Below are positions 1,485 to 61,804 of a DNA stretch of 64,000 nucleotides, piece after piece (the stretch's first letter is position 1; every line of letters begins with the position of its first letter). Source of the DNA: Mugil cephalus (lineage: Eukaryota); assembly GCF_022458985.1 (NCBI RefSeq), contig NC_061781.1, positions 26,385,222-26,449,221 on the forward strand, in the 5' to 3' direction. A program made the position numbers and the translations under genes. The notes below the pieces were generated by a model. It searched no databases. It worked only from the letters and a program-made list of their open reading frames with translations, and was not told the origin of the DNA.

Positions 1485-1940
1485 GTGATTATGGAGATCC
1501 TGCATGAAGCTGAACTCTGCTTTCCACTCCTCCTCAACACCTCCTGCAGGAAGACGCTGAGGCACCAGACACAAATCATCCTTTACATCCTGCTGTCCTG
1601 CATCTCTCTGCTCACTGTGTTCCTCAACCTGCTGGTCATCATCTCCATCTCACACTTTAGGTATAAAATACAAACTCACCATAACCTACAACTATTTTTC
1701 TTTCTCCTTCTTCACAGAGCTTTAATGAATGGGCTCGGGGACAATAGAGATGTGGTGCAATATTAAAATTGATTTACAGTTGTTCTTTAACAGAATACAA
1801 CTCCTGACATCTTCTACATGTTCCTGTTGTAACTTGGATATATTTTATATATTTGACTGTTCATTATGTTGCATGTGGTACTTTCATGATTTTAACAATT
1901 GATGCATGTGATGTATGAATATAATATATCTTATGATATT

Positions 1941-2019
<79 letters not shown>

Positions 2020-2840
2020 GGCAGCTCCACACCCCCACCAACCTCTTCCTCCTCTCTCTGGCTGTCTCAGACTTCCTCGTTGGTCTCCTCCTGATGCCGA
2101 TTCAAATCCTCCTTTTAGAGGGCTGCTGGGTTTTGGGAACTTTCTTATGTGGACTGTCTTACTACACCTCTTTTATCCTTACATCCGCCTCCGTAGGAAA
2201 CATGGTGCTGGTATCAGTTGACCGATATGTAGCTATCTGTGACCCATTGTGTTACCCCACCAAAGTCACTCAAAGCAGAGTTCAGATCTGTGTTTGTCTG
2301 TGTTGGATCTGCTCTGTGTTCTACAACAGTGTGATACTGAAAGACTTTCTGAAAGATCCAGACAGATATGCTTCATGTTATGGAGAGTGTGTAATTGTAA
2401 TTGACTTCATAACAGGAGCTTTTGATATTGTATTGACCTTTGTTTGCCCTATAGCTGTCATCATAGTTCTGTATCTGAGAGTGTTTGTGGTGGCTGTGTC
2501 TCAGGCTCGAGCCATGAGGTCTCATATTGCAGCTGTCACTCTACAGGGTTCAGGTCATGTAACTGCAAAGAAGTCTGAGAGAAAAGCAGCTACAGCTATT
2601 GGTGTTGTAGTGGTTGTCTTTCTGGTCTGTTTCTGTCCTTATTTTTCTCCTTCTCTCGCAGGACAAAACATTTCAACCAGCGTGGAGTTTTCTGTCTTTG
2701 GGTTGTGGTTACTTTATTGTAACTCTTGTCTTAATCCACTGATCTATGCTTTTTTCTACCCCTGGTTTCGGAGATCTGTTAAGCTCATTATTACACTTCA
2801 GATACTACAGCCTTACTCCTGTGATGCCAACATACTCTAG
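1485..2840 (+). CDS. Trace amine-associated receptor (TAAR, olfactory class-A GPCR), subfamily A. Two exons join(1485..1660,2021..2840), about 331 aa
   Basis: Exon 1 encodes MIMEILHEAELCFPLLLNTSCRK...NLLVIISISHF (N-terminal NxS/T-Cys plus TM1) and ends AG|GTATAA. The acceptor is ttcttccag|GCAGCTCC, and phase 2 rebuilds Arg before QLHTPTNLFLLSLAVSD (TM2). It has DRY (SVDRYVAICDPL), the ICL3 motif SQARAMRS, and the TAAR TM7 fingerprint NSCLNPLIYAFFYPWFRRS. Position 3.32 is Ser and 5.42 is Asp. The intron contains a (TTTC)n microsatellite. Confidence 0.85.
1938..2016. repeat. (TTTC)n microsatellite inside the TAAR-A intron
   Basis: About 19 perfect TTTC units, read directly. They are translated in the ORF track as FFLSFFLS. 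Confidence 0.95.
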
Positions 2841-7466: not shown

Positions 7467-8602
7467 CTATTTCGAGTCAGTAAATAGTTTCATGTCACGG
7501 GAGCCAGGCTTCAGGATCTGAAGTGACAGAATGAGCTTAATGGATTTCCTGAACCATGGGTAGAAGAAGGCATAAATGACAGGATTCAGACAGGAGTTGA
7601 AATGAGCTAACCAGATCTCAAAAGCTGCAGACGACGCATCTATGGAGGTGTCCTCCCCTGCCAGAGTGGGGAAATAATAAGGACAGAAGCAGAACAAAAA
7701 CACCACTACAACGATGCCGAGGGTCCCGGCTGCCTTCATCTCTGTCTTCTTCACAGTTACCGTCCCCCGTTGCTGGGCAGCCACATGAAAGCGGATGCTT
7801 CGAGCCTGAGACATGGCCACCACAAACACTCTAAGGTACAGGACTATGATGACAGTGATGGGTATGATGAAAGTGAAAACAAGGTCAATCATCCCTGCAA
7901 TGTAACTGATGATCACCACGCACTCTCCAAAGCAGGAGTTAGAGCTGCTTGGATTCATCAGTTGATCGTGCAGTAGGATAACCCTGTAAAAAACAGAGCA
8001 GACCCAACTCAAGCAGACGTAGATCTTTGCTTTTTCTATTGTGACTTTGGTGGGGTAACGCAGAGGGTCACAGATAGCTATGTACCGATCAAGAGAAATG
8101 AGAACCATGTTGGCTACTGAGGCAGAGGTAATGATGTAGTCAACAACATAATAGAGAGTGCAAATGATGTCTCCGAGGAACCAGCAGGACTCAATGTAGA
8201 TGATTTCCACAGGCATCAGCAGGAGACCGACGAGGAGGTCGGAGACAGCCAGAGAGAGGAGGAGGAGGTTGGTGGGGGTGTGGAGCTGCCTGCAGACGGA
8301 GAAAACCATCAACACACATCCATACAGCAAGACACTGAAACAAGCTGTTCTTGAAACGGCCCACAGAGTCAAAGAAACGAGCACAGAATAATTCCAGCAG
8401 ACCATTGAAGGATTTTAGATCAGTGCCTGAAGTGGGAGATGGAGACGATGATGAGAAGGTTGAGAGCCACAGTGATGAACGAGATGGTTGAGAGCAAGAC
8501 ATAGATGAGCATGGCCTCGGTGTGGGGGTGAGTGGGCTTCCTGCAGGAGGAGTTCAGCCACGGAACGCAGAACTCATGTCCCTCCGTGGTGTCCATGCTC
8601 AA
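7467..8602 (-). CDS. TAAR, subfamily B. Two exons complement(join(7467..8289,8427..8602)), about 332 aa. The donor is non-canonical GC
   Basis: Exon 1 reads MSMDTTEGHEFCVPWLNSSCRK...NLLIIVSISHF. Exon 2 starts at ctgcag|GCAGCTCCAC (R)QLHTPTNLLLLSLAVSD. It has DRY (SLDRYIAICDPLRY) and NSCLNPVIYAFFYPWFRKS. Both 3.32 and 5.42 are Asp. The only frame-preserving donor is AG|GCACTG, giving a 137 nt intron, and intron retention would put a stop right after SISHFRH. Confidence 0.72.
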
Positions 8603-10276: not shown

Positions 10277-11406
10277 CTACAATATATTGGTCTCACAGGA
10301 GCCAGGTTTCAAAATGTGAAGTGCAATAATGAGTCTGAGACATTTCCTAAACCAGGGGTAGAAAAAAGCGTAGATGACAGGGTTCAGGCAGGAGTTAAAG
10401 TACATGACAAAGACCATATAGATTTCAGTAGATGAACCAATCATTATTGTGCGGCCTGTGAGTGTGGCAGCGTAGTACGGACAGTAACAAACCAAGAACA
10501 CAGTGACAACGACCATTAGAGTCCTAGCAGCCTTCATCTCAGATCGCCGAGCTCTTACATTCTTTGATCTGCCTATTGTGACAGTGACAGTGACAACCTT
10601 GGGTCGCATGGCCCGAGCATGAGACACAGCCACCACAAATATTCTCAGATACAGCACAATGATGATAGCAATGGGAATGACGAAGCCCAGAACTAAGTCA
10701 ACATCTCCTGCAATGCCTACCAGACATTCTCCTAAGCAGGAATTATACTTTCCAGGTATCTTCATGTGATCATACAGGATGAAAACGTTAATAAAGACAG
10801 AGTAGGTCCAACATAGACACACACAGATTTTGATTTTCTTTTTAGTGATCCTGGTCGGGTAGTGCAGGGGGTCGCAAATAGCCACGTAGCGATCAACTGA
10901 GATGAGCACCATGTTTCCCACGGAGGCAGAAATGATGACAAAGGGTAGCAGGTAATAAGCAGCACACATGAGATCCCCCAGCATCCAGCACACCTGTGTC
11001 ATCAGGATTTCAACCGGCATCACCAAGAGACCCATGAAAAAGTCTGAGACCGCCAGAGAGAGAAGGAGGAAGTTAGTGGGGGTGTGCAGCTGCCTGCAGA
11101 GAGAGAACATCTTCATTGTGATAAGCAAAAACTAAAATCACATTCAAAAGACTCATTTAACAACCAGGAGTTAATTGTCACAGCACAAAACCACTTCCTT
11201 CTAAAAGTCTAACAGAATCAGAGAAAACAGAGATGTTTGTGCCTGAAGTGGGAGATGGAGATGATGACCAGCAGGTTGAGAGCTGCTGTCAGCGCAGACA
11301 CGACGTACAGCAGGAGGTAAGCAAGCATAGTCTCAGGCTGAGGAGGATCTGGTCTCCTGCAGGAGGCATTGGGCAGTTGTGGAAAGCAGAGCCGGATTCC
11401 CTCCAT
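10277..11406 (-). CDS. TAAR, subfamily C. Two exons complement(join(10277..11093,11243..11406)), about 326 aa if started at MEGIRLCF, or start at 11454 if MIQWF is used. GC donor
   Basis: Exon 1 reads MEGIRLCFPQLPNASCRRPDPPQPETMLAYLLL...NLLVIISISHF, with donor AG|GCACAA. The acceptor is ctctctgcag|GCAGCTGCAC (R)QLHTPTNFLLLSLAVSD. It has DRY (SVDRYVAICDPLHY) and NSCLNPVIYAFFYPWFRKC. Position 3.32 is Pro and 5.42 is Asp. Confidence 0.72.
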
Positions 11407-18897: not shown

Positions 18898-20039
18898 TTA
18901 CAGGACGTTAACATTACAGGAGCCAGGAGTCAGTATTTGAAGTGTCACAATAACTTTCATAGATTTTCTAAACCAGGGATAGAAAAAGGCGTAGATGATT
19001 GGGTTTAGACAGGAGTTAAAATAGAACAGAGAAACTACAAAGATAGAGGATGCATAACTAATCAAATTCTCCTGGTCTGTGAGTGAAACACAGAAATATG
19101 GACAGATACATGCTAGAAACACAAGTACAACAACCCCAAGAGTCCTGGCTGCTTTCAGTTCAGACTTCTTAGCTGTTACTTTCCCTGAACGCTGCAGAGT
19201 AAGAGCTGTAATATTACAGCGCATGGCACGAGCCTGAGACACAGCCACCACAAATACTCTGAGATACAGAACTATGATGACACTTATGGGCAGAAAGAAA
19301 GTCAACATGAGATCTACAAATTGTTTGGTCAAGTCAAAATCAATCACACACTCTCCGATGCAGGAATTAAACCTCCCTGGTTGTTTCAGACTCTCCTTAA
19401 TCATCAGTAATACATAGAAGAGAGAACAGATCCAACACAGAGAGACACAGATCTGAACTCTCCTCTGAGTGACTTTGGTGGGATAATGTAAAGGATAACA
19501 AATGGCAGCATAGCGGTCAACAGATATGAGCACCATGGTTCCTACTGAGGAAGATGGAATGACTAAGTCTAAAACTGAATACAGGACACACACCAGGTCA
19601 CCAAAATACCAGCATCCTTCTATGAGTGTGATCTGAAAGATCATGAGGAGGCCCACGAAGAAATCTGAGACAGCTAGAGAGAGGAGGAGGAGGTTGGTGG
19701 GAGTGTGGAGCTGCCTGGAGAAGGAAGAAAGAAACACACTTCTAATTATTGCTGGTAGTGATTATTATCTAAACAGATAACCCACATTAGATCATTAAGC
19801 ATTCAAGAACATTTCTATTGAAGCTACTTCCACAGTCATATCTGTCCAGTTTGATAAAGAGATGAAATAAGTGTCTACTTGAAGTGGGAGATGGAGATGA
19901 TGACGAGCAGGTTAAGAGCTGCAGTCAGTAGAGAGATGGAGGACAGGATAACGTGAATACACACAGTGTCAAAGTGAGAACGCTTTAGCTTCCTGCAGGA
20001 GGTGTTGAGCTGTGGAAAACAGAGTTCATCTCCCTCCAT
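18898..20039 (-). CDS. TAAR, subfamily D, copy D1. complement(join(18898..19714,19879..20039)), about 325 aa
   Basis: Exon 1 reads MEGDELCFPQLNTSCRKLKRSHFDTVCIHVILSSISLLTAALNLLVIISISHF, with donor AA|GTAGAC. The acceptor is ttctccag|GCAGCTCC, and phase 2 rebuilds Lys before QLHTPTNLLLLSLAVSD. It has DRY (SVDRYAAICYPLHY), SQARAMR, and NSCLNPIIYAFFYPWFRKS. Both 3.32 and 5.42 are Asp. Confidence 0.88.
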
Positions 20040-27646: not shown

Positions 27647-28788
27647 TTACAGGACGTTAACATTACAGGAGCCAGGAGTCAGTATTTGAAGGGTCACAAT
27701 AACTTTCATAGATTTTCTAAACCAGGGATAGAAAAAGGCGTAGATGATTGGGTTTAGACAGGAGTTAAAATAGAACAGACAAACTACAAAGATAGAGGAT
27801 GCATAACTAATCAAATTCTCCTGGTCTGTGAGTGAAACACAGAAATATGGACAGATACATGCTAGAAACACAAGTACAACAACCCCAAGAGTCCTGGCTG
27901 CTTTCAGTTCAGACTTCTTAGCAGTTACTTTCCCTGAACGCTGCAGAGTAAGAGATGTAATATTAGAGCGCATGGCACGAGCCTGAGACACAGCCACCAC
28001 AAATACTCTCAGATACAGAACTATGATGACACTTATGGGCAGAATGAAAGTCAACATGAGATCTACAAATTGTTTGGTCAAATCAGAATCAATCACACAC
28101 TCTCCGATGCAGGAATTAAACCTCCCTGGTTGTTTCAGACTCTCCTTAATCATCACACCTGTATAAAAGAGAGAGCAGATCCAACACAGAGAGACACAGA
28201 TCTGAACTCTCCTCTGAGTGACTTTGGTGGTATAATGTAAAGGATAACAAATGGCAGCATAGCGGTCAACAGATATGAGCACCATGGTTCCTACTGAGGA
28301 AGATGGAATGACTAAGTCTAAAACTGAATACAGGACACACACCAGGTCACCAAAATACCAGCATCCTTCTATGAGTGTGATCTGAAAGATCATGAGGAGG
28401 CCCACGAAGAAATCTGAGACAGCTAGAGAGAGGAGGAGGAGGTTGGTGGGAGTGTGGAGCTGCCTGGAGAAGGAAGAAAGAAACACACTTCTTATTATTG
28501 CTGGTAGTGATTATTATCTAAACAGATAACCCACATCAGATCATTAAGCATTCAAGAACATTTCTATTGAAGCTACTTCCACAGTCATATCTGTCCAGTT
28601 TGATAAAAAAATGAAATAAGTGTCTACTTGAAGTGGGAGATGGAGATGATGACGAGCAGGTTGAGAGCTGCAGTCAGTAGAGAGATGGAGGACAGGATAA
28701 TGTGAGTACACACAATGTCAAAGTGAGAACGCTTTAGCTTCCTGCAGGAGGTGTTGAGCTGTGGAAAACAGAGTTCATCTCCCTCCAT
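27647..28788 (-). CDS. TAAR, subfamily D, copy D2. complement(join(27647..28463,28628..28788))
   Basis: Same structure as D1, with about 9 aa differences in exon 2 (for example HYPTKVT to HYTTKVT, YVLLMI to YTGVMI, CNITA to SNITS). Both 3.32 and 5.42 are Asp. Confidence 0.88.
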
Positions 28789-35486: not shown

Positions 35487-36632
35487 TTACAGGACGTTGG
35501 CATTACAGGAGCCAGGAGTCAGTATTTGAAGGGTCACAATAACTTTCATAGATTTTCTAAACCAGGGATAGAAAAAGGCGTAGATGATTGGGTTTAGACA
35601 GGAGTTGAAATAGATCAGAAAACCTACAAAGACAAAGGATGAAGGATTGAGTAAAACCTCCTGCCCTGTGAATGAAACACAGAAATATGGACAGAAACAT
35701 GCTAGAAACACAAGTACAACAACCCCAAGAGTCCTGGCTGCTTTCAGTTCAGACTTCTTAGCAGTTACTTTCCCTGAACGCTGCAGAGTAAGAGATGTAA
35801 TATTAGAGCGCATGGCACGAGCCTGAGACACAGCCACCACAAATACTCTCAGATACAGAACTATGATGACACTTATGGGCAGAAAGAAAGTCAACATGAG
35901 ATCTACAAATCGTTTGGTAAAGTCAAAATCAATCACACACTCTCCAATGCAGGAATTAAACCTGTCTGGTTGTTTCAAACTCTCCTTAATCAACACTAAT
36001 ACATAGAAGAGAGAACAGATCCAACACAGAGAGACACAGATCTGAACTCTCCTCTGAGTGACTTTGGTGGGATAATGTAAAGGATAACAAATGGCAGCAT
36101 AGCGGTCAACAGATATGAGCACCATGGTTCCTACTGAGGAAGACACAATGATGAAGTCTAAAACTGAATAAATGACACACATTAGGTCACCAAAATACCA
36201 GCATCCATCTAAGAGCATGATCTGAAAGAACACGAGGAGGCCCACAAAGAAATCTGAGACAGCTAGAGAGAGGAGGAGGAGGTTGGTGGGAGTGTGGAGC
36301 TGCCTGGAGAAGGAAGAAAGAAACACATTTCTTATTATTGCTGGTAGTGACTATTATCTAAACAGATAACCCACATCAGATCATTGGATAAGCATTCAAG
36401 AACATTTCTATTGAAGCTACTTCCACAGTCATATCTGTCCAGTTTGATAAAGAGATGAAATAAGTGTCTACTTGAAGTGGGAGATGGAGATGATGACGAG
36501 CAGGTTGAGAGCTGCAGTCAGTAGAGAGATGGAGGACAGGATAATGTGAATACACACAGTATCAAAGTGAGAACGCTTTAGCTTCCTGCAGGAGGTGTTG
36601 AGCTGTGGAAAACAGAGTTCATCTCCCTCCAT
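35487..36632 (-). CDS. TAAR, subfamily D, copy D3. complement(join(35487..36303,36472..36632))
   Basis: Exon 2 reads (K)QLHTPTNLLLLSLAVSDFFVGLLVFFQIMLLDGCWYFGDLMCVIYSVLDFIIVSSS...NSCLNPIIYAFFYPWFRKS. Exon 1 (MEGDELCF...ISHF) is found with the same GT donor and AG acceptor as D1. Both 3.32 and 5.42 are Asp. Confidence 0.85.
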
Positions 36633-41325: not shown

Positions 41326-42471
41326 TTACAGGACGTTGGCATTACAGGAGCCAGGAGTCAGTATTTGAAGTGTTACAATAACTTTCATAGATTTTCTAAA
41401 CCAGGGATAGAAAAAGGCGTAGATGATTGGGTTTAGACAGGAGTTAAAATAGAACAGAGAAACTACAAAGATAAAGGACAAAGGATTGATCAAAATGTCT
41501 TGGCTTGTCAATAAAACACAGAAATATGGACAGATACATGCTAGAAACACAAGTACAACAACCCCAAGAGTCCTGGCTGCTTTCAGTTCAGACTTCTTAG
41601 CTGTTACTTTCCCTGAACGCTGCAGAGTAAGAGATGTAATATTAGAGCGCATGGCACGAGCCTGAGACACAGCCACCACAAATACTCTCAGATACAGAAC
41701 TATGATGACACTTATGGGCAGAAAGAACGACAAAATGAGATCTACAAATTGCTTTGTCAAGTCAAAGTCAATCACACACTCTCCGATGCAGGAATTGAAT
41801 CTGCCTGGTTGTTCCAGACTCTCCTTAATCATCACTAATACATAGAAGAGAGAAAAGATCCAACACAGAGAGACACAGATCTGAACTCTCCTCTGAGTGA
41901 CTTTGGTGGGATAATGTAAAGGATAACAAATGGCAGCATAGCGGTCAACAGATATGAGCACCATGGTTCCTACTGAGGAAGATGGAATGACTATGGCCAG
42001 AACTGAATAAATGACACACACCAGGTCACTGAAATACCAGCATCCTTCTATGAGGGTGATTTGAAAGATCATGAGGAGGCCCACGAAAAAATCTGAGACA
42101 GCTAGAGAGAGGAGGAGGAGGTTGGTGGGAGTGTGGAGCTGCCTGGAGAAGGAAGAAAGAAACACACTTCTTATTATTGCTGGTAGTGATTATTATCTAA
42201 ACAGATAACCCACATCAGATCATTGGATAAGCATTCAAGAACATTTCTATTGAAGCTACTTCCACAGTCATATCTGTCCAGTTTGATAAAGAGATGAAAT
42301 ATGTGTCTACTTGAAGTGGGAGATGGAGATGATGACGAGCAGGTTGAGAGCTGCAGTCAGTAGAGAGATGGAGGACATTATACTGAGAAGACACACAGTG
42401 TCAAAATGAGAACGCTTTAGCTTCCTGCAGGAGGTGTTGAGCTGAGGAAAACAGAGTTCTTCTCCCTCCAT
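41326..42471 (-). CDS. TAAR, subfamily D, copy D4. complement(join(41326..42142,42311..42471))
   Basis: Exon 1 reads MEGEELCFPQLNTSCRKLKRSHFDTVCLLSIMSSISLLTAALNLLVIISISHF. Exon 2 has the same motifs as D1, but position 3.32 is Ala (codon GCC at 41997..41995, where D1 has GAC). Position 5.42 is Asp. Confidence 0.88.
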
Positions 42472-43409
42472 TGTCAGAGAGAGGAGGAGAGAGCTGCTGA
42501 GTTCTGGCAGCCTCCTGGCCTCAATTCAGAGTCTTATTGTTTATGGAGCTCTTCTGACCCTCCTCTAAGATTCTTGGAGGACCAATGTCCCTTGTGTACA
42601 TGTTGTTTATCATTTGTCATCAACTCTACAGTGCATCCTCCAGTAATAACATCAACCAATCAGATTGTTTTGTTTACTTCCTGACTGACTGCAGGCTGGT
42701 CACAGTGAAGGTGAAAGGTCAAGCTCAGCTGAAAATTGGTAAAACTCATTTTGTTTTCTTTCAGGTGTTGATTCAAAATTTGGTTGGTCAAAACATCTTG
42801 AATTAAGCTAACTAGCTTAAAATGTTTGCTATTTGTGATACCAAGTCACATCACGCTAAAGTTGTTTGACTTTCATCAAATCTGTCAGCAGTGTCAATAT
42901 GTGTCGCCAGCTGCAATCCTAATTCATGTAATGAATTCATATTTTGTTAAGGGAGTGGCAGTGAGAGGATCCAAATGCGGACAGACAAAGAAGTTCAGGT
43001 GGAATTCAACAAGTTTTATTTCTTGTTCCAAAGGGAAGACAAGTTGAGGATCTGGGGTGTGGAGGGGGCAGGCTAAGGAGGGAACAAGCTGAAACAGGAG
43101 CAGGCTGGGGGATTTCAGGCAGAGACTGGAGCAGAGTGGGACCGGGGAATCGCCCAGGCAGGCAGGAGCTGAAACAGAGAAACAGGGTCAAAAATGTGTC
43201 TCTTATCTTAAGTCTAGGACATAGAGTCAAGCAGTGTACTAATTGAACAGTGGCTACAATCTGGCAGTGAGGTGAGGCAGGGCTGAGTAGAAGTAGGCTG
43301 GTGGTGATTGCAGGATGAGTTGCAGCTGAGAAGCTGCTGATGGGCTCTCCTCCGGCTCAGCACACCTGAAATCACTCACCAGACACACACACTCAAACAG
43401 CAGCCGTAA

Positions 43410-43800
43410 CACATTTCCCACCATCTGTCCGAACCTCAGGTACATCCTTCCATTTCAGGCTGGTATGTTTGTGATAGAAAGAACAAAGATGAACTGATAT
43501 AATGGGACAGGAAAACAGAGGCCAATTAATAATCAGGGGCAGCAGTTGGATGTGACAGTGCCTTTCCCTCTAGGGGCAGAACCTGAAGGCCCAGGTAAGG
43601 CCGGACAGTGGTGGAGGAAGTCACGAATGATGACTTCAACTTGAGGACCCAAGATGTCTCAAGCTGTCTCCTTAAAGACTGTAGCCTTCCTATTCAACAG
43701 GGTATTGAAGGTTGTAGCCAAAAGTCGTTTAACCATGAACACAACGCTGTTATCTAAGAAACGTGGTGGAGGCACATCAAAGGTTGGGTGAATTTTCATC
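43410..43800. repeat. Dispersed ~390 bp repeat of unknown family (second copy at 49030..49420)
   Basis: ...atttgtccgaacctcaggtacatccttccatttcaggctggtatgtttgtgatagaaagaacaaagatgaactgatataatgggacaggaaaacagaggc.aattaat.atcaggggcagcagttggatgtgacagtgcc... is present about 1.0-1.2 kb upstream of both D4 and D5, so it belongs to the amplified block. Confidence 0.7.
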
Positions 43801-47188: not shown

Positions 47189-48330
47189 CTAGAGTATGTT
47201 GGCATTAGAGGACCCAGGCTTCAGTATTTGAAGTGTCACTATCACTTTCATAGATTTTCTAAACCAGGGATAGAAAAAGGCGTAGATGATTGGGTTTAGA
47301 CAGGAGTTAAAATAGAACAGACAAGTTAAAAATAAAGCAGATGAAAAATTGTACAAAGCCTCCTGATCTGTGAAAAAAACACAGAATATTGGAAAGATAC
47401 ATGTTAGAAACACAAGTACAACAACCCCAAGAGTCCTGGCTGCTTTCAGTTCAGACTTCTTAGCTGTTACTTTCCCTGAACGCTGCAGAGTAAGAGCTGT
47501 AATATTAGAGCGCATGGCACGAGCCTGTGACACAGCCACCACAAATACTCTCAGATACAGAACGATGATGACACTTATGGGCAGAAAGAAAGTCAACATG
47601 AGATCTACAAATTGTTTGATAATGTCAAAATCAATCACACACTCTCCAATGCAGGAATTCAACCTGCCTGGTTGTTTCAGACTCTCCTTCAACAACACAC
47701 CTGCATAGAAGAGAGAACAGATCCAACACAGAGACACACAGATCTGAACTCTCCTCTGAGTGACTTTGGTGGGATAATGTAAAGGATAACAAATGGCAGC
47801 ATAGCGGTCAACAGATATGAGCACCATGGTTCCTACTGAGGAAGACGTGATGACTAAAGCCAGAACTGAATACAGGACACACACCAGGTCACCAAAATAC
47901 CAGCATCCTTCTATGAGCGTGATCTGAAAGAACACGGGGAGGCTCACGAAGAAATCTGAGACAGCTAGAGAGAGGAGGAGGAGGTTGGTGGGAGTGTGGA
48001 GCTGCCTGGAGAAGGAAGAAAGAAACACACTTCTTATTATTGCTGGTAGTGATTATTATCTAAACAGATAACCCACATCAGATCATTAAGCATTCAAGAA
48101 CATTTCTATTGAAGCTACTTCCACCGTCATATCTGTCCAGTTTGATAAAGAGATGAAATAAGTGTCTACTTGAAGTGGGAGATGGAGATGATGACGAGCA
48201 GGTTGAGAGCTGCAGTCAGTAGAGAGATGGAGGACAGGATAACGTGAATACACACAATGTCAACGTGAGAACGCTTTAGCTTCCTGCAGGAGGTGTTGAG
48301 CTGTGGAAAACAGAGTTCATCTCCCTCCAT
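47189..48330 (-). CDS. TAAR, subfamily D, copy D5. complement(join(47189..48005,48170..48330))
   Basis: Exon 1 reads MEGDELCFPQLNTSCRKLKRSHVDIVCIHVILSSISLLTAALNLLVIISISHF. Exon 2 has the D-family motifs. Position 3.32 is Ala (GCT at 47860..47858) and 5.42 is Asp. Confidence 0.88.
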
Positions 48331-49599
48331 TGTCAGAGAGAGGAGGAGAGAGCTGCTGAGCTCTGGCAGCCTCCTGGCCTCAATTCAGAGTCTTATTGTT
48401 TATGGAGCTCTTCTGACCCTCCTCTAAGAGTCTTGGAGGACCAATGTCCCTCCTCCGTTGTTGTGTACATGTTACCCACAAGGGCTTTAAGGATACTGTT
48501 CATTGTTTGTCATCAACTTTGCAATACATTGAAGCCTTCAGTAATAACATTAACCAATCAGATTGTTTTGTTTACTTCCTGACTGACTGCAGGCTGGTCA
48601 CAGTGAAGGTGAAAGGTCAAGCTCAGCTGAAAACTGAAAATTGCTACAACTCATTTTGTTTTCTTTCAGGTGTTAATTCAAATGTTGGTTGGTCAAAACA
48701 TCTTGAATTAAGCTAACTAGCTTAAAATGTATGCTGTTTGTGATACTAAATGACATCACGCTAAAGTTGCTTGACTTTCATCAAATCTGTCAGCAGTGTC
48801 AATATGTGTCGTCAGCTGCAATCCTAATTCATGTCACGTTAAATCCTGTTCTGATGTGCTAAAGTGTCAGCGATTTTGAACTTATTTGCGTCATAGGTTT
48901 ATGAATGATGGTTTTAAAATCAATGGTGTTCTGTGCTGCAAGCTAAGTTGTATGTCTTATTATGGCGAGTTATTTGTGTTTTGCTTATATTGTCCATTCC
49001 AAAGCTGGACAACATAATTCCAAACCCCCACTCACACATTTTCCACCATTTGTCCGAACCTCAGGTACATCCTTCCATTTCAGGCTGGTATGTTTGTGAT
49101 AGAAAGAACAAAGATGAACTGATATAATGGGACAGGAAAACAGAGGCTAATTAATTATCAGGGGCAGCAGTTGGATGTGACAGTGCCCCTCCCTCTAGGG
49201 GTGGAACCTGAAGGCCCAGGTAAGGCAGGACAGTGGCGGAGGAAGTCACGGATGATGACTTCAGCTTGAGGATCCAAGATGTCTCAAGCTGTCTCCTTAA
49301 AGACTGTAGCCTTCCTATTCAACAGGGTATTGAAGGTTGTAGCCAAATGTCGTTTAACAATGAACACAACACTGTCATCGAAGAAGCATGGTGGAGGCAC
49401 ATCACCCTGTAGCCTATATTAACAATATAGTTATTCTTATCAAAGTGTCTTGAATCAAATCACAAAAGTATTTTATCGTCCTTTGTATTTCTTCTTTCAA
49501 ATAAAATGTGCACTTAACATGTTCACTTCAAAAATACACCTTGAACATGAAATTCCATAACAAAGTGGTCTTAAAATTAAAGAGGTAGTAGAAAACTGT

Positions 49600-51480
49600 T
49601 TGCAAACTTCTGTCCAAAGGCACTCTGTTAGCAGGAACAACAGAGATGTCTGGAGTGGTATGAAGATCATCACTGGTCTCAGGCCAGCTGGCAATAGAGG
49701 AATGGAAGGCAGTGTGGAATGGGCCAACAAACTCAATCTGTTCTTTAACAGATTTGATACCACTGCCCCTCCACCCCCATATAAACACCACCATCAACCC
49801 CTCCACCAGTGCCTGTATTGTTTTGTCTGCAACAACACCTTTTCCACTCTCTCCCTCTCTTTACTGCCCCTCATCTTCTTCGGGAGGACAGTGTCTCACC
49901 TCCACCCCCATACTAGGGCTGGACAATTATGGAAAAAATAATAATCACGATTATTTTTGATTGATATGAAATTGCGATTAATAAATACAACTATTCATTG
50001 ATTTCATAAAAAGTATTTATTGAACCACCAAAACTCAACTTTAAATATAGCTTTTTATAGCATAAATGTCACATCCTCCGTTATCTATCGCTGTCTCCGG
50101 GAGCCGGTGGGACATGGAGTGGCTGTAAAGAGTGTCCTCAAAGGAGGACTGAGTTGTGGTGGCGGTGGCTGAAGTTGATGCACTTTTTTGGGCCTTTTGT
50201 TCCTTCAATTCTTTGTCATAGACACTTCATGACGGAACTTTAAATGGTTAAATAAATTTGTTGTGTTCTTTGAGGTGCAGACACGGCGGCGCGACAAACT
50301 TTGCAAACAATCTCCTTCTGCTGCACATCTGACAATTTGAATCCAAAATGTCTCCAAATGACTGAAGTTGTCCTACCTGTCTTTTCAACTTTTCAGTTGA
50401 TCCACACACGTCACACGTGTAATTGTTTTCCTTCGATTACAGTGTTTTTATGATTGTGAGAAGCCAAAATCGAAATCGCGATCAAAATTCGATTAATTGT
50501 CCAGCCCTACCCCACATCTCCACCCCATCTACTGTGATCATCACTGCCGATGATGTTAGAAGACAGCTGGGGAATTTTCACTCTGGCAATGGGGTCAGCC
50601 CCAGGGTGCTCAAAACCTGTGCCACCCAGCTCTGTGGAGTCCTTCAGCATGTCTTCAACATATGTCTTCAGAGGGTCTCTGTAATGTGGAAGATGTCCTG
50701 CCTATTTCCTGTGCTGAAGACGCCGCGACCTGGTGGCTTGAAGGACTACAGACCGGTGGCGCAAGTCGGAGTTGAGGCTGCCATCAGTTTCGAGTACTGT
50801 GAGAGTCATGTTCTTTGACTTCTCCAGTGCTTTCAACACCGTCTTCTGGGTGAGAAGATGATGGCGATGCAGGTGGATTCCCCCCTGGTGTCATGGCTTG
50901 TTGACTACCTGACTGGCAGACCATAGTATGGCGCCTGCAACGCTGTGTGTCAGACAGGCTGGTCAGCAACAATGGGGCCCCCCAGGGGACTGTACTCTCT
51001 CCCTTCCTCTTCACCCTCTACACCACGGACTTCAACCACTGCACAGAGACCTGTCATCTCCAGAAGTTTTCTGATGACTCTGCAGTGGTTGGATGTATCA
51101 ACTATCAACGAGGTGGAGTACAGGGCTGTTGTGGACAACTTTGTTACATGGTGTGAGGAGAACCATCTACAGCTCAATGTGACGAAGACGAAGGAACTGG
51201 TGGTGGACCTGAGGAGGACTAAGGCGCCGGTGACCCCTGTGGGGGCCAGTGACATCTTCTATGCTGTTGTGTGCTGGGGCAGCAGGCTGAGGGTAGTGGA
51301 CGCCAACAGACTGAACAGACTGATACGTAAGGCCAGTGATGTAGTGGGGGTGAAGCTGGACCCTCTGACAGTGGTGTCAGACAGAAGAATGCTTCACAAG
51401 GTGAAAGTCATCCTGGACAATGAGTTGAACCCACTCCATGATGTACTGGCCAGAGTTCTTTCAGCTCCAGACTGATCACA
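49600..51480 (+). mobile_element. LINE (CR1/L2/jockey-like) ORF2 remnant, multiply frameshifted
   Basis: The linker is ...NKLNLFFNRFDT. The RT N-terminus is GVSPRVLKTCATQLCGVLQHVFN...KMSCLFPVLKTPRPGGLKDYRPVA. The RT core is GAPQGTVLSPFLFTLYTTDF...FSDDSAVVGCI...LQLNVTKTKELVVDLRR, followed by ...IFYAVVCWGS. Confidence 0.7.
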
Positions 51481-53097
51481 CCACGATGCATCACAGAGAC
51501 ACAGGAAATCATTCCTGCCTGTGGCCATCAAACTGTACAACTCCTCACTCTGAGGGCATAGAACCCATATTATTTATGAACATATTTATACTGATAATGT
51601 ACAATAATTCACTTCATCTCATATACTCTCATATATTAGTACACATTCCCTGTATACTAGGGGACTCTGGTCTTTACTATGTGCAATGTTTATAAATATA
51701 TTGATACTGAGATGCAAAAATACATGCTTCACTTTATCATTTTCATATACTTGTACATATTTCCTGATATACTCTCACCATGTGCAATAATTTTCCCCAC
51801 TGTGCAGTACCCCATATTCAATGTCACTGTGTACTTGTATATATATATTTATATATATATTTACATTCTCTTACTTAATCTTATTGCCTACATTGCTCTT
51901 TGTTCGTAATACTGGTATACTTTAGGTAGGAGCTGCTGTAACGAAACTTTATTGATCCCCCTGGGATCAATAAAGTAATTCTGATTCTGATTCTGAATAC
52001 AGAACTATAGTTATATATTATGGTTTTCTAATCTTCAGACATAACTATGAGGAGATGTTCCTGTTACCTGCTTAACAGTTTCGACTGCGACTCCGGTTTT
52101 GACTCTTCCTCAGAAGCGTCATCCGACGTGTTGCTGATGTGTCATTTATCAGCTGTCTCGCGTTCGCAGTCTTTTTTGTGTTCATTTCTCCGTGTGTAGA
52201 AAGACCTTCCTGTTTCCCCAATGTATTTTTTTTACATGTTTTGCACAGTATTTCATAGATGATGTTGTATTTTTTATCTGGTTCTATTTTGTCTTTTAGG
52301 TGTACTATGAGCTGACAGAGTTTTGTGTGTGGTTTTATTTCATCATGCGTTGATTTGGTTCAGTTATCATTCCATCCATTTATTGAATGTGCATGTTATG
52401 CCCAGACAGCAATCAACTACAAGAATGTCTTATTTGTCTTCCTCAAATTAAATATTAACATGTTTGCAATGTAGGCTGTTTATTACCTTAAAAAGGCAAC
52501 GTATCCTGGGAGAAACAACTCATAAAATCTAAAATATAGATAGATAGAAGATAATAACTTGGGTCTTAAATAGAAAAATAACATTACATTATTTTTTGCA
52601 ATTTGATTGCTACTCGTGCCTGTTTAAGGCTTAGCTCAGATAAATATGGCACAACTTATTTTAAATTCATTTTGTCTTCTTACAGGTGTTAATTCAACAA
52701 CCAGAGTCTTAGAGCTTTAAGATACCTAGGGCAGGTCTGATCCACTCCTGGAGCTCCGCGGCCGTGGAGTTGTTTGCACTGTTCAACTCCAGGCCCTCTG
52801 ACTCTGTTTCCTCTATGAGATACGTGTTGGTGGGATTGAGGAGCTCCTCAAAGTATTCCTTCCACTACCTGAAGATATCCCCAGCTGACGTCAGCAGCTC
52901 CCCGTCTCCACCAAAAATGGTGTGGGTAAGTATTCGTCCACCTCCCTTGGGGAGCTGGACGATGTGCCAGAACCTCTCGGGAACCAATCGATAGTCCGAA
53001 TTTCTCCCACACCCAAGTTTTTGCCACAGCGTCTGCCCTAGCGGCAGACCAGCTTGCTACTCTTGACTGATCAGGTGGTTCCAAAGACTCAAGGACA

Positions 53098-54451
53098 AAA
53101 ATGTGTATTTGATATTTGTAACATAATTTTTATTGAGGTTTTATGGAACTGTTATTAAGACATCCATAGCTTTAATGTATGTTCATTTCAGTTGTTTTAT
53201 CACCACCGTTTGATTTTCCTCTTGTGATTGAATTGTGGATGTATGAATTTCCTTTGCTCTAACTTTTCAGTGTTGGTTTACATGTACTTAACACATGGAG
53301 TTCATGTTTAATCCTGCAGCAGGTAAAATTATTCCACAGATCTGTGTGGTGCTGTACACAGTGGACCACCTAGCCACCCGGTACTGATCGGCTGCTTTCA
53401 GAGACCCACAGACCAGTCATACCCTGTAGGCCTCCTGCTTCAGCTGTGAATGGAGGATGTGAGTTAGGCATTGTCCTTATGAAGCTTCTCACATTAGCTT
53501 CTCCAAATGATCACCAATTAAAGTAAAATATACTAAAGTCTTGTTATATAAGACTTCTCCATGAAATTAACATTTCATATTAGCAGTTACTACGTTCAAG
53601 AAATTCTACAAGAAATTCTACAAGTCCAGCTGACCTTATTCAACGCTTTTTTGGATTACGTTGTGTAAGTTGCTGTAAGAAAATTGATTTCAAGGAGCAC
53701 CTGCTAACCTATAAACATTTCACCATCTTATTTGAATGACCTTGTGACCTTATATGCACCCTCCTGTGCACTTCACCCCCAGAGAACTAGTGTGTTGAGT
53801 GTTCTGAGGCCGGAAAAAAATACAACTGGTGAGAGTGCTTTTTCTTTCCATGCTCTATAGTTGAAGTTTAGCAACATTCACATCATTTCATTGAAAATAA
53901 AATATTTGTATTAGTGCTGCCAAGCTATTAAAACTTTAAATAAGATTAATGACAGTTGCTGTAGATTAATTCACTTAATCACGATTCAGTATTATTCAGT
54001 TTTAATTTATATCAATCATGTTTCCTTTTGCATGACCAAGCAGACTCTAACAGACTAACTTGTTATGTTAATCATATGTTTTCTATGTGAATATGGCTAA
54101 ACTTCAACTTTTGTTGAAGTAAGTTTGGACATGGTTAAGTCACTGTTTCATCATTTCAGAGTCTTGCATAACACACTCACAGTGTGTCAGCAGAATCCTC
54201 ACTGGGCTCCAAACAGCTCTCAGAATGTAGCCTGTTAGCTGTAGCTAATGAGGTTTTCACACCTGCAGTCATTAACATCTGAAGGTGACACTGCTCCAAT
54301 CAGAGGTGTTACTGTCTGATTAAACAAGATGCACCATGACGCAACCATTGCTAAGTAAAACCAAAGCTGTCAACACTAAACTGTGAGGGGGACTGATGCA
54401 ACACTCAATTAATTTAGTCTGTTACATCAATTCAACTTTGACTTTTATAAC

Positions 54452-54493
<42 letters not shown>

Positions 54494-55318: not shown

Positions 55319-55934
55319 TTAAATGCAATGAACACATTTCAACATTAACTCTCCAATTGTTGTTGTGCAAATGCACAAATAAGGAAAATCCTTTACTGGT
55401 TCCTTCTCTCATAAAACTGAGGAGGTTCTGCTATCCTTCTCCAGAAAAGGAAGCTCTAGGACCAAGAAACTCAGCTCTCTTCCTTAGTTCAGTAACATTA
55501 AGGTGAATACGTCTTTTTTTTTTTTTTTAAATATAATTGAAAGTGCCAAAGGAAATTCAAAAAAGTGCAGAAAGAGATCAATCATCTATCAGGCCAACAG
55601 ACTAAAAATGGCAGTAAAGGACTGGAACATATCATCAAGAACCAACTAGTGAAAGATCCTGCTATCTTGACTATCTGCAGAATTCAATTATTTTTTATTA
55701 TTATTTTTTTATTATTATTAAGTCTGTAACACCGCAAATCCAATGCTCTAATCCATAAGTAAATCTGAACTCAACAACTACAGACGAATCAGTATTCTTC
55801 CTGTCATCTCCACAGTAATAGAAAATGGATAGCCACACAGCTAATAGAGCATCTCAATAATACACCATTGTACACAATGCAGTTTGGCCAGTCCACTGAG
55901 TTGGCCATAACCACGTTTATAGAAAAAAAAACAA

Positions 55935-59701: not shown

Positions 59702-59732
<31 letters not shown>

Positions 59733-60658: not shown

Positions 60659-61804
60659 TTACAGGACGTTGGCATTACAGGAGCCAGGAGTCAGTATTTG
60701 AAGTGTCACAATAACTTTCATAGATTTTCTAAACCAGGGATAGAAAAAGGCGTAGATGATTGGGTTTAGACAGGAGTTAAAATAGAACAGACAAAATACA
60801 AGGACTAAGGATGAAGGATTGTACAAATTCTCCTGGTCTGTGAGTGAAACACAGAAATATGGACAGAAACATGTTAGAAACACTAGTACAACAACCCCAA
60901 GAGTCCTGGCTGCTTTCAGTTCAGACTTCTTAGCTGTTACTTTCCCTGAACGCTGCAGAGTAAGAGCTGTAATATTAGAGCGCATGGCACGAGCCTGAGA
61001 CACAGCCACCACAAATATTCTCAGATACAGAACTATGATGACACTTATGGGCAGAAACAAAGTCAAAATGAGATCTACAAAACGTTTGGTAAAGTCAATG
61101 TCAATCACACACTCTCCAATGCAGGAATTAAATCTGCCTGGTTGTTTCAGACTCTCCTTAATCAACACAAATACATAGAAGAGAGAACAGATCCAACACA
61201 GAGAGACACAGATCTGAACTCTCCTCTGAGTGACTTTGGTGGGATAATGTAAAGGATAACAAATGGCAGCATAGCGGTCAACAGATATGAGCACCATGGT
61301 CCCTACTGAGGAAGACGTAATGACTGTGTCTAAAACTAAATAAAAGATGCACACCAGCTCATCAAAATACCAGCATCCATCTATGAGCGTGATCTGAAAG
61401 ATCATGAGGAGGCCCACGAAGAAATCTGAGACAGCTAGAGAGAGGAGGAGGAGGTTGGTGGGAGTGTGGAGCTGCCTGGAGAAGGAAGAAAGAAACACAC
61501 TTCTTATTATTGCTGGTAGTGATTATTATCTAAACAGATAACCCACATCAGATCATTGGATAAGCATTCAAGAACATTTCTATTGAAGCTACTTCCACAG
61601 TCATATCTGTCCAGTTTGATAAAGAGATGAAATATGTGTCTACTTGAAGTGGGAGATGGAGATGATGACGAACAGGTTGAGAGCTGCAGTCAGTAGAGAG
61701 ATGGAGGACAGGATAATGTGAATACACACAGTATCAAAGTGAGAACGCTTTAGCTTCCTGCAGGAGGTGTTGAGCTGTGGAAAACAGAGTTCATCTCCCT
61801 CCAT
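60659..61804 (-). CDS. TAAR, subfamily D, copy D6. complement(join(60659..61475,61644..61804))
   Basis: The exon 1 sequence and splice signals are the same as the other D copies. Exon 2 reads ...CWYFDELVCIFYLVLDTVITSSSVGTM...NSCLNPIIYAFFYPWFRKS. Both 3.32 and 5.42 are Asp. There is a 12 bp deletion in the 5' leader relative to D1-D5 (ccattgtcagagagag-ctgctgagc). Confidence 0.85.

Follow-up and report, generated by a model that had tools for sequence, protein, structure and literature searches.

A TAAR cluster in the Mugil cephalus genome raises the question of how closely related receptor genes come to differ in the canonical amine counter-ion, Asp3.32, and what such a difference may mean for the ligands that they bind. 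An earlier note on this DNA had described nine paralogs among which the residue at 3.32 toggles, D4 and D5 carrying Ala where their nearest relatives carry Asp, while Asp5.42 is kept throughout. Below we address the identity of the genes, the history of Ala3.32 and its predicted consequences.

The window holds nine spliced TAAR genes of probable class III type

tblastn searches of the whole window, by which we mean the complete 64,000-nt stretch of M. cephalus DNA analyzed here, located exactly nine TAAR genes and no extra TAAR pseudogene. Exon 1, intron and exon 2 are intact in each gene, and each of the nine models matches an M. cephalus RefSeq protein exactly (Table 1), with D4 100% identical to one labelled 'TAAR 13c-like'. 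The intron falls after codon 53–56, at a Phe|Lys junction in D1–D6 and a Phe|Arg junction in A, B and C. All D-gene introns, including those of D4 and D5, are GT-AG, and the D reading frames are intact at 325 codons.

Table 1. Positions within the window of the TAAR genes, selected introns, the codons for residues 3.32 and 5.42, and the patch shared by D4 and D5.
Feature	Position	Strand	Details
Gene A (XP_047457666)	1491..2840	+	exon 1 1491-1660, exon 2 2021-2840; 329 aa
Gene A intron	1661-2020	+	GT-AG; holds (TTTC)n microsatellite
Gene B (XP_047457663)	7467..8596	-	exon 1 8596-8427, exon 2 8289-7467; 330 aa
Gene B intron		-	137 nt, GC-AG
Gene C (XP_047457670, 'TAAR 4-like')	10277..11406	-	exon 1 11406-11243, exon 2 11093-10277; 326 aa
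Gene C intron		-	149 nt, GC-AG
Gene D1 (XP_047457671)	18898..20039	-	exon 1 20039-19879, 164-nt intron, exon 2 19714-18898; 325 aa
Gene D2 (XP_047457675)	27647..28788	-	exon 1 28788-28628, 164-nt intron, exon 2 28463-27647; 325 aa
Gene D3 (XP_047457680)	35487..36632	-	exon 1 36632-36472, 168-nt intron, exon 2 36303-35487; 325 aa
Gene D4 (XP_047457672)	41326..42471	-	exon 1 42471-42311, 168-nt intron, exon 2 42142-41326; 325 aa
Gene D5 (XP_047457681)	47189..48330	-	exon 1 48330-48170, 164-nt intron, exon 2 48005-47189; 325 aa
Gene D6 (XP_047457676)	60659..61804	-	exon 1 61804-61644, 168-nt intron, exon 2 61475-60659; 325 aa
A Ser3.32	2169..2171	+	codon 107, TCT
B Asp3.32	8139..8141	-	codon 107, GAC
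C Pro3.32	10943..10945	-	codon 105, CCC
D1 Asp3.32	19567..19569	-	codon 103, GAC, TTA before
D2 Asp3.32	28316..28318	-	codon 103, GAC
D3 Asp3.32	36156..36158	-	codon 103, GAC
D4 Ala3.32	41997..41995	-	codon 103, GCC
D5 Ala3.32	47860..47858	-	codon 103, GCT
D6 Asp3.32	61328..61330	-	codon 103, GAC
A Asp5.42	2424..2426	+	GAT
B Asp5.42	7884..7886	-	GAC
C Asp5.42	10697..10699	-	GAC
D1 Asp5.42	19312..19314	-	GAT
D2 Asp5.42	28061..28063	-	GAT
D3 Asp5.42	35901..35903	-	GAT
D4 Asp5.42	41740..41742	-	codon 188, GAT
D5 Asp5.42	47603..47605	-	codon 188, GAT
D6 Asp5.42	61073..61075	-	GAT
D4 patch, Leu3.31-Ala3.32	41995..42000	-	codons 102-103, CTG GCC; common with D5
D5 patch, Leu3.31-Ala3.32	47858..47863	-	codons 102-103, CTG GCT

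Pfam 7tm_1 (PF00001) matches at E ~1e-47, and scores of 156–168 bits against a cut-off of 30.5 identify D4, D5, D1, B, C and A as class A GPCRs. All nine genes have the DRY and NPxxY motifs and the disulfide cysteine Cys3.25, and a regular expression for the TAAR fingerprint, NSxxNPxx[YH]xxx[YF]xWF, found it in 9/9 proteins. This TM7 fingerprint was reportedly defined by Lindemann et al. in 2005. The name 'TAAR fingerprint motif' is used in PMC8890504. A PDB search returned zebrafish TAAR13a–e as the best relatives (E 1e-53 to 1e-52), with TAAR1, 7f and 9 next (E 1e-49 to 1e-47) and, among the matches listed, adrenergic, histamine and 5-HT receptors at E ~1e-34 or weaker, which makes TAARs, not other aminergic GPCRs, the closer relatives of the window genes. 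According to PMC4415300, class III family A has its ICL1 intron close to codon 55, at an aromatic|basic dipeptide. The window genes have this structure, with two coding exons and an aromatic|basic ICL1 junction, and the Asp5.42 of the same family is found in all nine of them and in ~97% of aligned sequences. The window is part of the M. cephalus olfactory TAAR cluster and holds nine genes of probable neoteleost spliced class III type, with the class III placement resting on the intron hallmark and the closest homologs.

Assignment of positions 3.32 and 5.42

Position 3.32 was taken as the residue 17 upstream of the DRY Asp, and 5.42 as the residue eight before P5.50. When aligned to zebrafish TAAR13c structure 9m2s, the Ala of D4 lies opposite residue 112 and its Asp opposite residue 202, which are Asp112^3.32 and Asp202^5.42 of TAAR13c (Li et al. 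2015, PMC4695389). Alignment to human B2AR pairs Ala103 of D4 with Asp113 and Asp188 with Ser203, so that the Ballesteros-Weinstein numbering of the earlier note holds against both receptors. Reading the codons gave the residues and coordinates that the note had reported at 3.32 in all nine genes, as well as the Asp5.42 (GAT or GAC) that it had ascribed to each. An AlphaFold2 model of D4 built on a 60-sequence alignment reached a mean pLDDT of only 47 and a pTM of 0.31, which makes it unfit for pocket geometry or a fold search; only its helix boundaries were taken, and these would place residues 103 and 188 in H92-126 and H184-225, respectively.

Turnover of position 3.32 across the clade

We observed extensive variation at 3.32 in an alignment of 129 sequences comprising the nine window genes and 120 homologs. 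The residue is Asp in 71, Ala in 30, Gly and Ser in 10 each and Asn in 5, with Pro, Met and Ile occurring once each; Asp5.42 is present in 125/129. Even of 203 pairs that are at least 85% identical, 77 (38%) have Asp at 3.32 in one member and non-Asp in the other. Among 125 percomorph homologs, 3.32 requires 37 parsimony steps, which ranks it 10th of 325 columns (top 3%), and includes at least 27 switches between Asp and non-Asp, while 5.42 requires 4 steps and ranks 246th. Position 3.32 is among the fastest-changing pocket positions of the whole clade. The toggle is not peculiar to these genes and recurs throughout percomorph class III TAARs; the Asp-to-Ala swap is a further example of an already described fish TAAR pattern that is commonplace in the clade. 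The number of switches also suggests that a single loss of Asp3.32 in clade III, the picture derived from zebrafish, oversimplifies the percomorph case.

Pocket variation within the D subfamily

The D subfamily has at least 15 members, six of them in the window (D1–D6), and among the sequences searched it was seen only in M. cephalus. The best non-D matches to D4 reach at most 71% identity, with Mugil paralogs of other subfamilies and sequences of other species both at ~71%. Twelve of the 15 D paralogs have Asp at 3.32 and three have Ala, namely D4, the out-of-window XP_047457677, and D5. On an NJ tree D4 and XP_047457677 are sisters (100% bootstrap) and this group joins D1 + D2 at 59%, while D5 is placed elsewhere, on the longest branch and with the unusual substitutions L77P (2.56), C6.49F and Y6.51I. 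Internal branches of the D tree, which is star-like, are weakly supported. Asp3.32 is most parsimoniously ancestral in the subfamily, the direction from Asp to Ala being given by parsimony only.

Position 3.32 is one of many differences among these genes. The D paralogs differ from each other at 25–46 residues, including 3.33, 3.36, 6.48, 6.51, 6.55, 7.35 and 7.39, and the claim that they differ 'exactly' at 3.32 is therefore not tenable. Across the family 106 of 325 positions are variable, so that variation at 3.32 as such is unremarkable, and generic pocket positions are over-represented among them (20/30 versus 86/295, p = 6e-5). With rates obtained as Nei-Gojobori counts, the TM6-ECL3-TM7 segment has a pN/pS of 1.41; both results bear out the proposal that young paralogs have diversified in the pocket. 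The dN/dS ratio is below 1 among D paralogs and lowest for D4 (0.38–0.57 against the others). Given this low ratio and the retention of Ala in the sister of D4, the Ala copies seem to be under constraint and not in decay.

All 15 D members retain Tyr7.43, with which Asp3.32 usually pairs. Trp6.48 is absent from all nine window genes, which have Ile, Phe or Leu instead, and in the D family Lys5.38 sits a helical turn above Asp5.42, suggesting that the pocket of these genes may differ from that of TAAR13c. Pro3.36 is found in D1, D2 and D4, and residue 6.55 is hydrophobic in all three Ala3.32 paralogs (p = 0.044).

We also note that synonymous divergence among the D genes is concentrated in the ligand-binding segments, and that the D intron is 98–100% identical. 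A conserved regulatory element was considered as the cause of the intron identity and rejected, as the D intron is unrelated to the A, B and C introns (~46–49% identity when the alignment is forced).

Ala3.32 lies on a short patch shared by D4 and D5

The codon for Ala belongs to a 5-nt patch that reads CTG-GCY in D4 and D5 versus TTA-GAC in the other window D genes, so that in both genes the preceding Leu codon carries two synonymous changes (TTA to CTG) as well. The three differences, at CDS nt 304, 306 and 308, are three of only four sites exclusive to D4 and D5, and their occurrence within 5 nt is non-random (permutation p ~7e-4). D4 and D5 are the least similar pair of window D genes (90.6% nt). 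The earlier description of a 'single A-to-C' change stands formally for D4 only; GCT of D5 is two steps from GAC, and in both genes the replacement is part of a multi-nucleotide patch.

At ~14 nt or less, the shared patch would make a short conversion tract. PHI, a formal test for recombination, gave no significant result with the six D coding sequences (p = 0.85–0.97), and we therefore do not claim ordinary long-tract gene conversion. In a sliding-window nearest-neighbour scan, likewise, there was no extended stretch over which D4 and D5 came out as mutually closest. Genes A, B and C were excluded as donors of CTG-GCC by their codons (ACC-TCT, GTT-GAC and CTA-CCC, respectively). The presence of the patch in the non-sister genes D4 and D5 suggests that the Ala had a single origin and moved between paralogs. 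Most likely, Ala3.32 arose once and was transferred through gene conversion or recombination over a very short stretch.

The Ala3.32 patch appears to be one of many small pocket-lining motifs seemingly shuffled among the D genes. It is conceivable, though we are inclined to doubt it, that templated micro-conversion of few-codon patches diversifies the ligand-pocket code of the subfamily and that selection keeps the copies. If so, having or lacking the canonical amine counter-ion would be a transferable cassette, and a synonymous divergence 5–10x higher for the binding segments than for the intron would be accounted for.

Predicted ligand consequences

In the scheme of Li et al. (2015, PMC4695389), Asp5.42 without Asp3.32 is the non-classical clade III configuration and the two Asps together are that of TAAR13c-type di-cation receptors, in agreement with how the earlier note had read them. 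Both Asps are present in B, D1, D2, D3 and D6, while A (Ser), C (Pro) and D4 and D5 (Ala) have the Asp5.42-only, TAAR16-like arrangement. By analogy with the zebrafish receptors, the former are predicted to anchor di-cations (diamines, agmatine, histamine) at both ends, and the latter to anchor one amine on Asp5.42 in an inverted orientation. We infer that D4 and D5 may have switched from di-cation to mono-cation ligands.

Mutations in zebrafish receptors bear on this prediction. D3.32A abolishes the cadaverine responses of TAAR13c and leaves TAAR13a, 13d, 13e and 14d with weaker or no responses to di-cations, and Asp5.42 is required by clade III TAAR16c and TAAR16f (PMC4695389). The suggestion that losing Asp3.32 could change a receptor for diamines into one for monoamines goes beyond what D3.32A has shown, which is only the loss of di-cation responses; the conversion itself was demonstrated in TAAR13c for D5.42A and not for D3.32A (PMC4695389). 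Guo et al. (2022, PMC8890504) document exceptions to the one-Asp/two-Asp rule. Since spliced family A has no zebrafish members (PMC4415300), the functional rule is transferred here across ~40–45% sequence identity.

Alternative explanations

The D receptors could instead anchor their ligand on Asp5.42 only, in which case 3.32 would be near-neutral or serve fine-tuning and no switch in ligand class would follow. This is what one might read from the place of 3.32 in the top 3% of columns for changes, from its at least 27 Asp/non-Asp switches among 125 homologs and from the 38% of pairs at or above 85% identity that differ in Asp status, as well as from the unusual pocket (no Trp6.48; Pro3.36 in D1, D2 and D4; Lys5.38) and the motif-rule exceptions of Guo et al. 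(PMC8890504). However, diversifying selection on ligand class predicts an equally high turnover of a charged pocket residue, D3.32A weakened or abolished the response in every two-Asp zebrafish TAAR tested (PMC4695389), and the conserved Tyr7.43 in 15/15 D members also argues against a dispensable 3.32. We regard it as unlikely, although it deserves some weight.

Regarding the origin of Ala3.32, two independent Asp-to-Ala substitutions under parallel selection, one in the D4 lineage and one in D5, would essentially restore the single-change picture. That D4 and D5 are non-sister and the most divergent pair, that PHI gives no recombination signal and that homoplasy is high (44% of informative site pairs are incompatible) would all fit, and the hydrophobic 6.55 of the three Ala paralogs (p = 0.044) could mean convergent pocket remodelling. 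But the two synonymous TTA to CTG changes are shared too, and three identical changes within 5 nt are very unlikely to have happened twice, so we think independent substitution improbable. About equally improbable, in our judgement, is the reverse history, in which Ala3.32 (CTG-GCC) is ancestral in the D family and Asp3.32 (TTA-GAC) was regained and spread by duplication and conversion. In the nearest Mugil outgroups 3.32 is indeed Ala (P0020, P0087) or Ser (P0015), the star-like tree has a weakly supported backbone, and homogenisation is evidently active (intron 98–100% identical); yet Asp occupies 3.32 in 12/15 paralogs, D4 and its sister nest with the Asp-bearing D1 and D2, and ancestral Asp needs fewer parsimony events. 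We give hardly any credence to assembly or sequencing errors at the Ala codons, or to decay of D4 and D5. The long branch of D5 and its L77P, C6.49F and Y6.51I substitutions might hint at decay, but Ala occurs in three distinct paralogs and on a multi-nucleotide patch rather than as a single-base difference, the genes have intact 325-codon frames, GT-AG introns and RefSeq models, and dN/dS is < 1 and lowest for D4.

Taken together, we consider it probable that one explanation covers the cluster identity, the ancestral Asp, the single transfer of Ala and the predicted ligand split. All nine genes retain Asp5.42, the counter-ion for non-classical amine recognition in clade III TAARs. Asp3.32 would be ancestral in the D subfamily, Ala3.32 would have arisen once on the CTG-GCY patch, and the patch would have passed between D paralogs by very short conversion or recombination. 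Loss of Asp3.32 would then leave a single amine anchored on Asp5.42, by analogy with zebrafish TAAR13/14 versus TAAR16. Beyond these points, there is nothing unusual about the locus, an olfactory receptor cluster that is already annotated.

Comparison with known systems

Zebrafish TAAR13a–e and TAAR14c/d (PMC4695389; structures 9m2s, 9m0x and others) share both Asps with B, D1, D2, D3 and D6, and the TAAR13 receptors, which are the best PDB relatives (E ~1e-53), have the fingerprint, DRY, NPxxY and Cys3.25 in common with the mullet genes. They are nevertheless probably not orthologs of the mullet genes, whose spliced family has no zebrafish member, and 'TAAR13c-like' is a similarity-based automatic label. 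Zebrafish TAAR13c is a single-exon gene, whereas the mullet genes have two exons (PMC4415300 gives zebrafish TAARs as intronless). Trp6.48 of TAAR13c is replaced by Ile, Phe or Leu in the mullet genes, and its Trp5.38 by Lys in the D family.

The mullet genes share two coding exons and the ICL1 intron with percomorph family A of cichlids, stickleback and medaka (Azzouzi et al. 2015, PMC4415300). Family A and the Siniperca chuatsi repertoire resemble mullet in their tandem arrays and dN/dS of ~0.4 or higher (PMC4415300 and PMC12560584), and in the one S. chuatsi genome 45/68 TAARs have Asp5.42 only and 15/68 both Asps (PMC12560584). The accessible parts of these two papers do not describe features like the shared CTG-GCY patch or the segmental synonymous excess of mullet. 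Our literature search found no published work on Mugil TAARs.

Olfactory receptor clusters and the MHC are examples of tandem receptor families in which gene conversion and diversifying selection act together. Unlike conversion of that type, the mullet D genes gave no detectable long tracts and no significant PHI result. They are similar to it in combining near-identical introns and non-binding segments with binding segments that diverge at both synonymous and non-synonymous sites, and in the short motifs common to non-sister D genes.

The configuration of mullet A, C, D4 and D5 is that of the monoamine receptors TAAR16c/e/f of zebrafish, which have Asp5.42 only (PMC4695389). TAAR16 belongs to a different class III family, and in the zebrafish model its loss of Asp3.32 is old and fixed, whereas that of D4 and D5 is probably recent and lies within an otherwise two-Asp subfamily. 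If the prediction holds, D1 or D2 and D4 form a natural receptor pair (92% identical) with and without the classical counter-ion. Such a pair would be a convenient test of the second step in the two-step model of Li et al., the loss of Asp3.32 that turns a di-cation receptor into a monoamine receptor of inverted ligand orientation, a step that has so far been inferred from deep phylogeny only.

Gene content and gene models

A six-frame ORF list together with tblastn recovered nine TAAR-like second exons in the window, and no further TAAR fragments were found there by either approach. Exon 1 of each gene was placed with the aid of the N-termini of the RefSeq models, and two-exon models were then built whose translations match RefSeq XP_ proteins exactly in all nine cases. 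In a database search the D4 ORF was 100% identical to a RefSeq protein of 325 aa named 'trace amine-associated receptor 13c-like [Mugil cephalus]', which is encoded on a chromosome of 27.8 Mb. Splice sites are GT-AG in seven genes and GC-AG in B and C, whose RefSeq proteins need these GC-AG splices and whose introns share phase and position with the other seven. The intron splits the codon after Phe53-56, with Phe and Lys or Phe and Arg as flanking residues; an intron placed in this way is the hallmark of family A, the 'spliced' class III TAARs of neoteleosts (Azzouzi et al. 2015, PMC4415300). Each of the nine proteins matches Pfam 7tm_1 (156-168 bits against a cut-off of 30.5 for D4, D5, D1, B, C and A) and has the TAAR TM7 fingerprint. 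On all sequence criteria applied, the nine genes belong to the neoteleost spliced family of class III TAARs.

Two-exon models of the nine TAAR genes, with introns (164 or 168 nt in D1-D6) and the residue and codon at position 3.32
Gene	Model	Strand	Intron	3.32	Codon position
A	1491-1660 / 2021-2840	+		Ser, TCT	
B	8596-8427 / 8289-7467	-	8290-8426	Asp, GAC	
C	11406-11243 / 11093-10277	-	11094-11242	Pro, CCC	
D1	20039-18898	-	19715-19878	Asp, GAC	
D2	28788-27647	-	28464-28627	Asp, GAC	
D3	36632-35487	-	36304-36471	Asp, GAC	
D4	42471-41326	-	42143-42310	Ala, GCC	41997..41995
D5	48330-47189	-	48006-48169	Ala, GCT	47860..47858
D6	61804-60659	-	61476-61643	Asp, GAC	

The intron of gene A holds a perfect (TTTC)19.5 microsatellite (1939-2016) just upstream of the exon 2 acceptor, which gives the mechanical ORF 1899-2840 a false 'FFLSFFLS...' extension. 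On the minus strand between D1 and D2, 22782-24759 contains one ORF of 256 aa and another of 240 aa. The former has an ALKBH8_N-like match and a weak match to reverse transcriptase (RVT_1, 26.9 bits where the cut-off is 29.6). A degraded LINE-type retroelement is the probable source and would explain the longer D1-D2 spacing. D5 and D6 are 13.5 kb apart, compared with 5.8-8.8 kb for the other D units; tblastn found no TAAR remnant in 48331-60658, and this interval resembles other intergenic DNA only in short stretches (e.g. 49034-49404 and 43409-43779, 94.6%).

Positions 3.32 and 5.42

Position 3.32 was taken as the residue 17 before the DRY Asp and 5.42 as the residue eight before P5.50. A recount bears out the residues and codons that the earlier note had assigned to 3.32, as well as its Asp5.42 in all nine genes. 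Alignment agrees with this numbering: the D4 Ala and Asp lie opposite chain residues 112 and 202 of the zebrafish TAAR13c structure 9m2s (HMMER), which are Asp112^3.32 and Asp202^5.42 (Li et al. 2015, PMC4695389), and D4 Ala103 and Asp188 pair by BLASTP with Asp113 and Ser203 of human B2AR. An AlphaFold2 model of D4 was rejected as too poor for use (pLDDT 47).

We aligned the nine genes with their 120 best homologs, percomorph 'TAAR13c-like', '8a-like' and '4-like' proteins, some of which are RefSeq versions of the window genes. Of these 129 sequences, 71 have Asp at 3.32, 30 Ala, 10 each Gly and Ser, 5 Asn, and one each Pro, Met and Ile, whereas 125 have Asp at 5.42. Parsimony on an NJ tree of 125 sequences requires 37 steps at 3.32 (rank 10 of 325 columns), with at least 27 Asp/non-Asp switches, against 4 steps at 5.42 (rank 246 of 325). 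When cluster representatives with a mutual identity of at least 85% are paired, one member has Asp3.32 and the other does not in 77 of the 203 pairs. Gene A (Ser3.32) and the out-of-window XP_047456040 (Gly3.32) fall in one 90%-identity cluster, so the toggle extends beyond the D family. It is a general property of this TAAR clade, and one already published in part: in Siniperca chuatsi 15 TAARs have both Asp residues, 45 have just Asp5.42 and 6 just Asp3.32 (PMC12560584).

Origin of the Ala codons in D4 and D5

In M. cephalus the D subfamily numbers at least 15 genes, the six in the window and nine paralogs outside it (P0004, P0006-P0009, P0121, P0123-P0125). It is monophyletic against other mullet TAARs (100% bootstrap), and the best identity to D4 from another species in the database search is at most 71%. 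All 15 members have Asp5.42; at 3.32 twelve have Asp and three Ala. Given this majority and the monophyly, Asp3.32 would be the parsimonious ancestral state, with some room for doubt left by the star-like tree. The reverse history, in which Ala is ancestral and Asp was regained, is possible and draws on the nearest outgroups, which carry Ala and Ser at 3.32, but it is less parsimonious.

Codons 102-103 read TTA GAC in D1, D2, D3 and D6, CTG GCC in D4 and CTG GCT in D5. Among the 149 variable sites of the six D coding sequences only four have a state common to D4 and D5 alone, and three of them are CDS positions 304, 306 and 308; random draws of four variable sites place three within 5 nt in ~0.07% of trials. 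The shared stretch is at most ~14 nt, bounded by discordant sites 294 and 309. No D pair is less similar than D4 and D5 (90.6% nt, 85.8% aa), and in the D-family tree D4 groups at 100% bootstrap with the out-of-window XP_047457677, which also carries Ala3.32; this pair joins D1 and D2 at 59%, while D5 is placed elsewhere. Two independent Asp to Ala changes, each by the single A-to-C substitution that the earlier note proposed, are contradicted by the CTG codon common to these non-sister genes. Most likely, Ala3.32 of D4 and D5 sits on a multi-nucleotide patch of common origin that two separate lineages carry; the change from GCC to GCT in D5 would be a later synonymous step. That the Ala codons reflect assembly error or decaying copies is unlikely, as Ala occurs in three paralogs and on a multi-nucleotide patch, and the Ala paralogs have intact ORFs and dN/dS below 1.

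Selection and mosaic history of the D units

Pairwise dN/dS among D1-D6 is 0.38-0.86 (Nei-Gojobori); the cichlid family A mean is 0.425 (PMC4415300). By segment, pN/pS reaches 1.41 in TM6ext-ECL3-TM7ext, against 0.14-0.64 in the other computable segments. Unexpectedly, synonymous divergence is uneven as well: pS is 0.16-0.23 in the three extracellular, ligand-binding segments but 0-0.04 in three of exon 2's four intracellular segments, and TM7int-C-terminus has 0.13. Codons for invariant amino acids are polymorphic at 18 of 56 in binding segments vs 14 of 147 elsewhere (p = 2e-4). Identity of the D intron is 97.6-100% across all six genes (8/164 sites variable), above that of the coding sequence (90.6-97.8%), and the synonymous rate of the binding segments exceeds the intron rate (p = 6e-7). 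Because this intron is unrelated to those of A, B and C, its identity reflects recency or homogenisation and not deep constraint.

Similarity between D units reaches no more than a few hundred bases beyond the genes. The 300 bp upstream of the start codons group D4, D5 and D6 (42472-42771, 48331-48630 and 61805-62104; 93.9-98.3%, with D5-D6 at 98.3% and D4-D5 at 95.8%), and D1 and D2 are 97% identical there and 86-90% to the rest. A 4-nt intron indel splits D3, D4 and D6 from D1, D2 and D5. In coding sequence D4 is nearest D1, a grouping different from the upstream one, which points to a mosaic history. Tight patches are common to other non-sister pairs as well (e.g. D2 and D5 at nt 464, 466 and 467), and 44% of informative site pairs in the D coding sequences are incompatible. 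In the six D coding sequences this incompatibility showed no distance dependence by the PHI test (p = 0.85-0.97), and ordinary long-tract gene conversion is not demonstrated by it. We infer fine-scale reticulation, in which very short conversion or recombination patches would have been selected in pocket segments on a young or homogenised background.

Pocket variation and predicted ligand consequences

The recent paralogs had been described as differing exactly at 3.32. They in fact vary at 106 of 325 positions, including 20 of 30 generic aminergic pocket positions vs 86 of 295 others (Fisher p = 6e-5), among them 3.28, 3.29, 3.33, 3.36, 4.57, 5.39, 5.46, 6.48, 6.51, 6.55, 6.58, 7.32, 7.35, 7.36 and 7.39. 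In place of Trp6.48, the class A 'toggle', all nine TAARs carry Ile, Phe, Leu or Tyr, and TM6 reads CxCPY instead of CWxP (e.g. D4 codon 257, residues 256-261 'CICPYF'). D5 additionally has C6.49F, Y6.51I and Pro at 2.56. All 15 D paralogs keep Lys5.38 (residue 184), which lies one turn of the helix above Asp5.42 and could form a pair with that residue. At 6.58 (residue 267) the D family toggles among Asp, Gly and Ser; an external gating site for cadaverine has been reported at Asp6.58 of TAAR13c. Position 6.55 is Leu or Phe in all three Ala3.32 D paralogs vs 3 of 12 Asp paralogs (p = 0.044), and Ser276^6.55 is close to the second amine in the TAAR13c model (PMC4695389).

The cluster consists of intact olfactory TAAR genes of class III in tandem, with invariant Asp5.42 and hypervariable 3.32. 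By analogy with the zebrafish work, B, D1, D2, D3 and D6, which have both Asp residues, are predicted to bind di-cationic amines through one salt bridge at each end; D4, D5, A and C would bind just one amine, in inverted orientation, at Asp5.42. The functional framework was set out by Li et al. 2015 (PMC4695389) and by Guo et al. 2022 (PMC8890504), the latter listing exceptions to the motif rule. Position 3.32 may instead be dispensable in the D subfamily and its toggle near-neutral. The very high turnover would fit, but diversifying selection accounts for it equally well, and zebrafish mutagenesis speaks against dispensability: D112A abolishes TAAR13c responses to cadaverine up to 1 mM, and D3.32A reduces or abolishes responses of TAAR13a, 13d, 13e and 14d (PMC4695389). 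Monoamine agonism was gained only in the opposite mutant, D5.42A (PMC4695389).

Despite their automatic '13c-like' name, the mullet genes are probably not orthologs of zebrafish TAAR13c. Their pocket differs from it in having Ile, Phe or Leu in place of Trp6.48 and, in the D family, Lys5.38 above Asp5.42 and Pro3.36 in D1, D2 and D4. Published work already covers the Asp3.32/Asp5.42 categories, what they are proposed to mean for ligands and their occurrence side by side in percomorph genomes; the earlier reading of a toggling Asp3.32 is correct, but the nine-gene cluster is an ordinary case of this known TAAR pattern. What the mullet adds is the species itself, a recent within-subfamily toggle on a shared 5-nt patch and a segmental excess of synonymous divergence.
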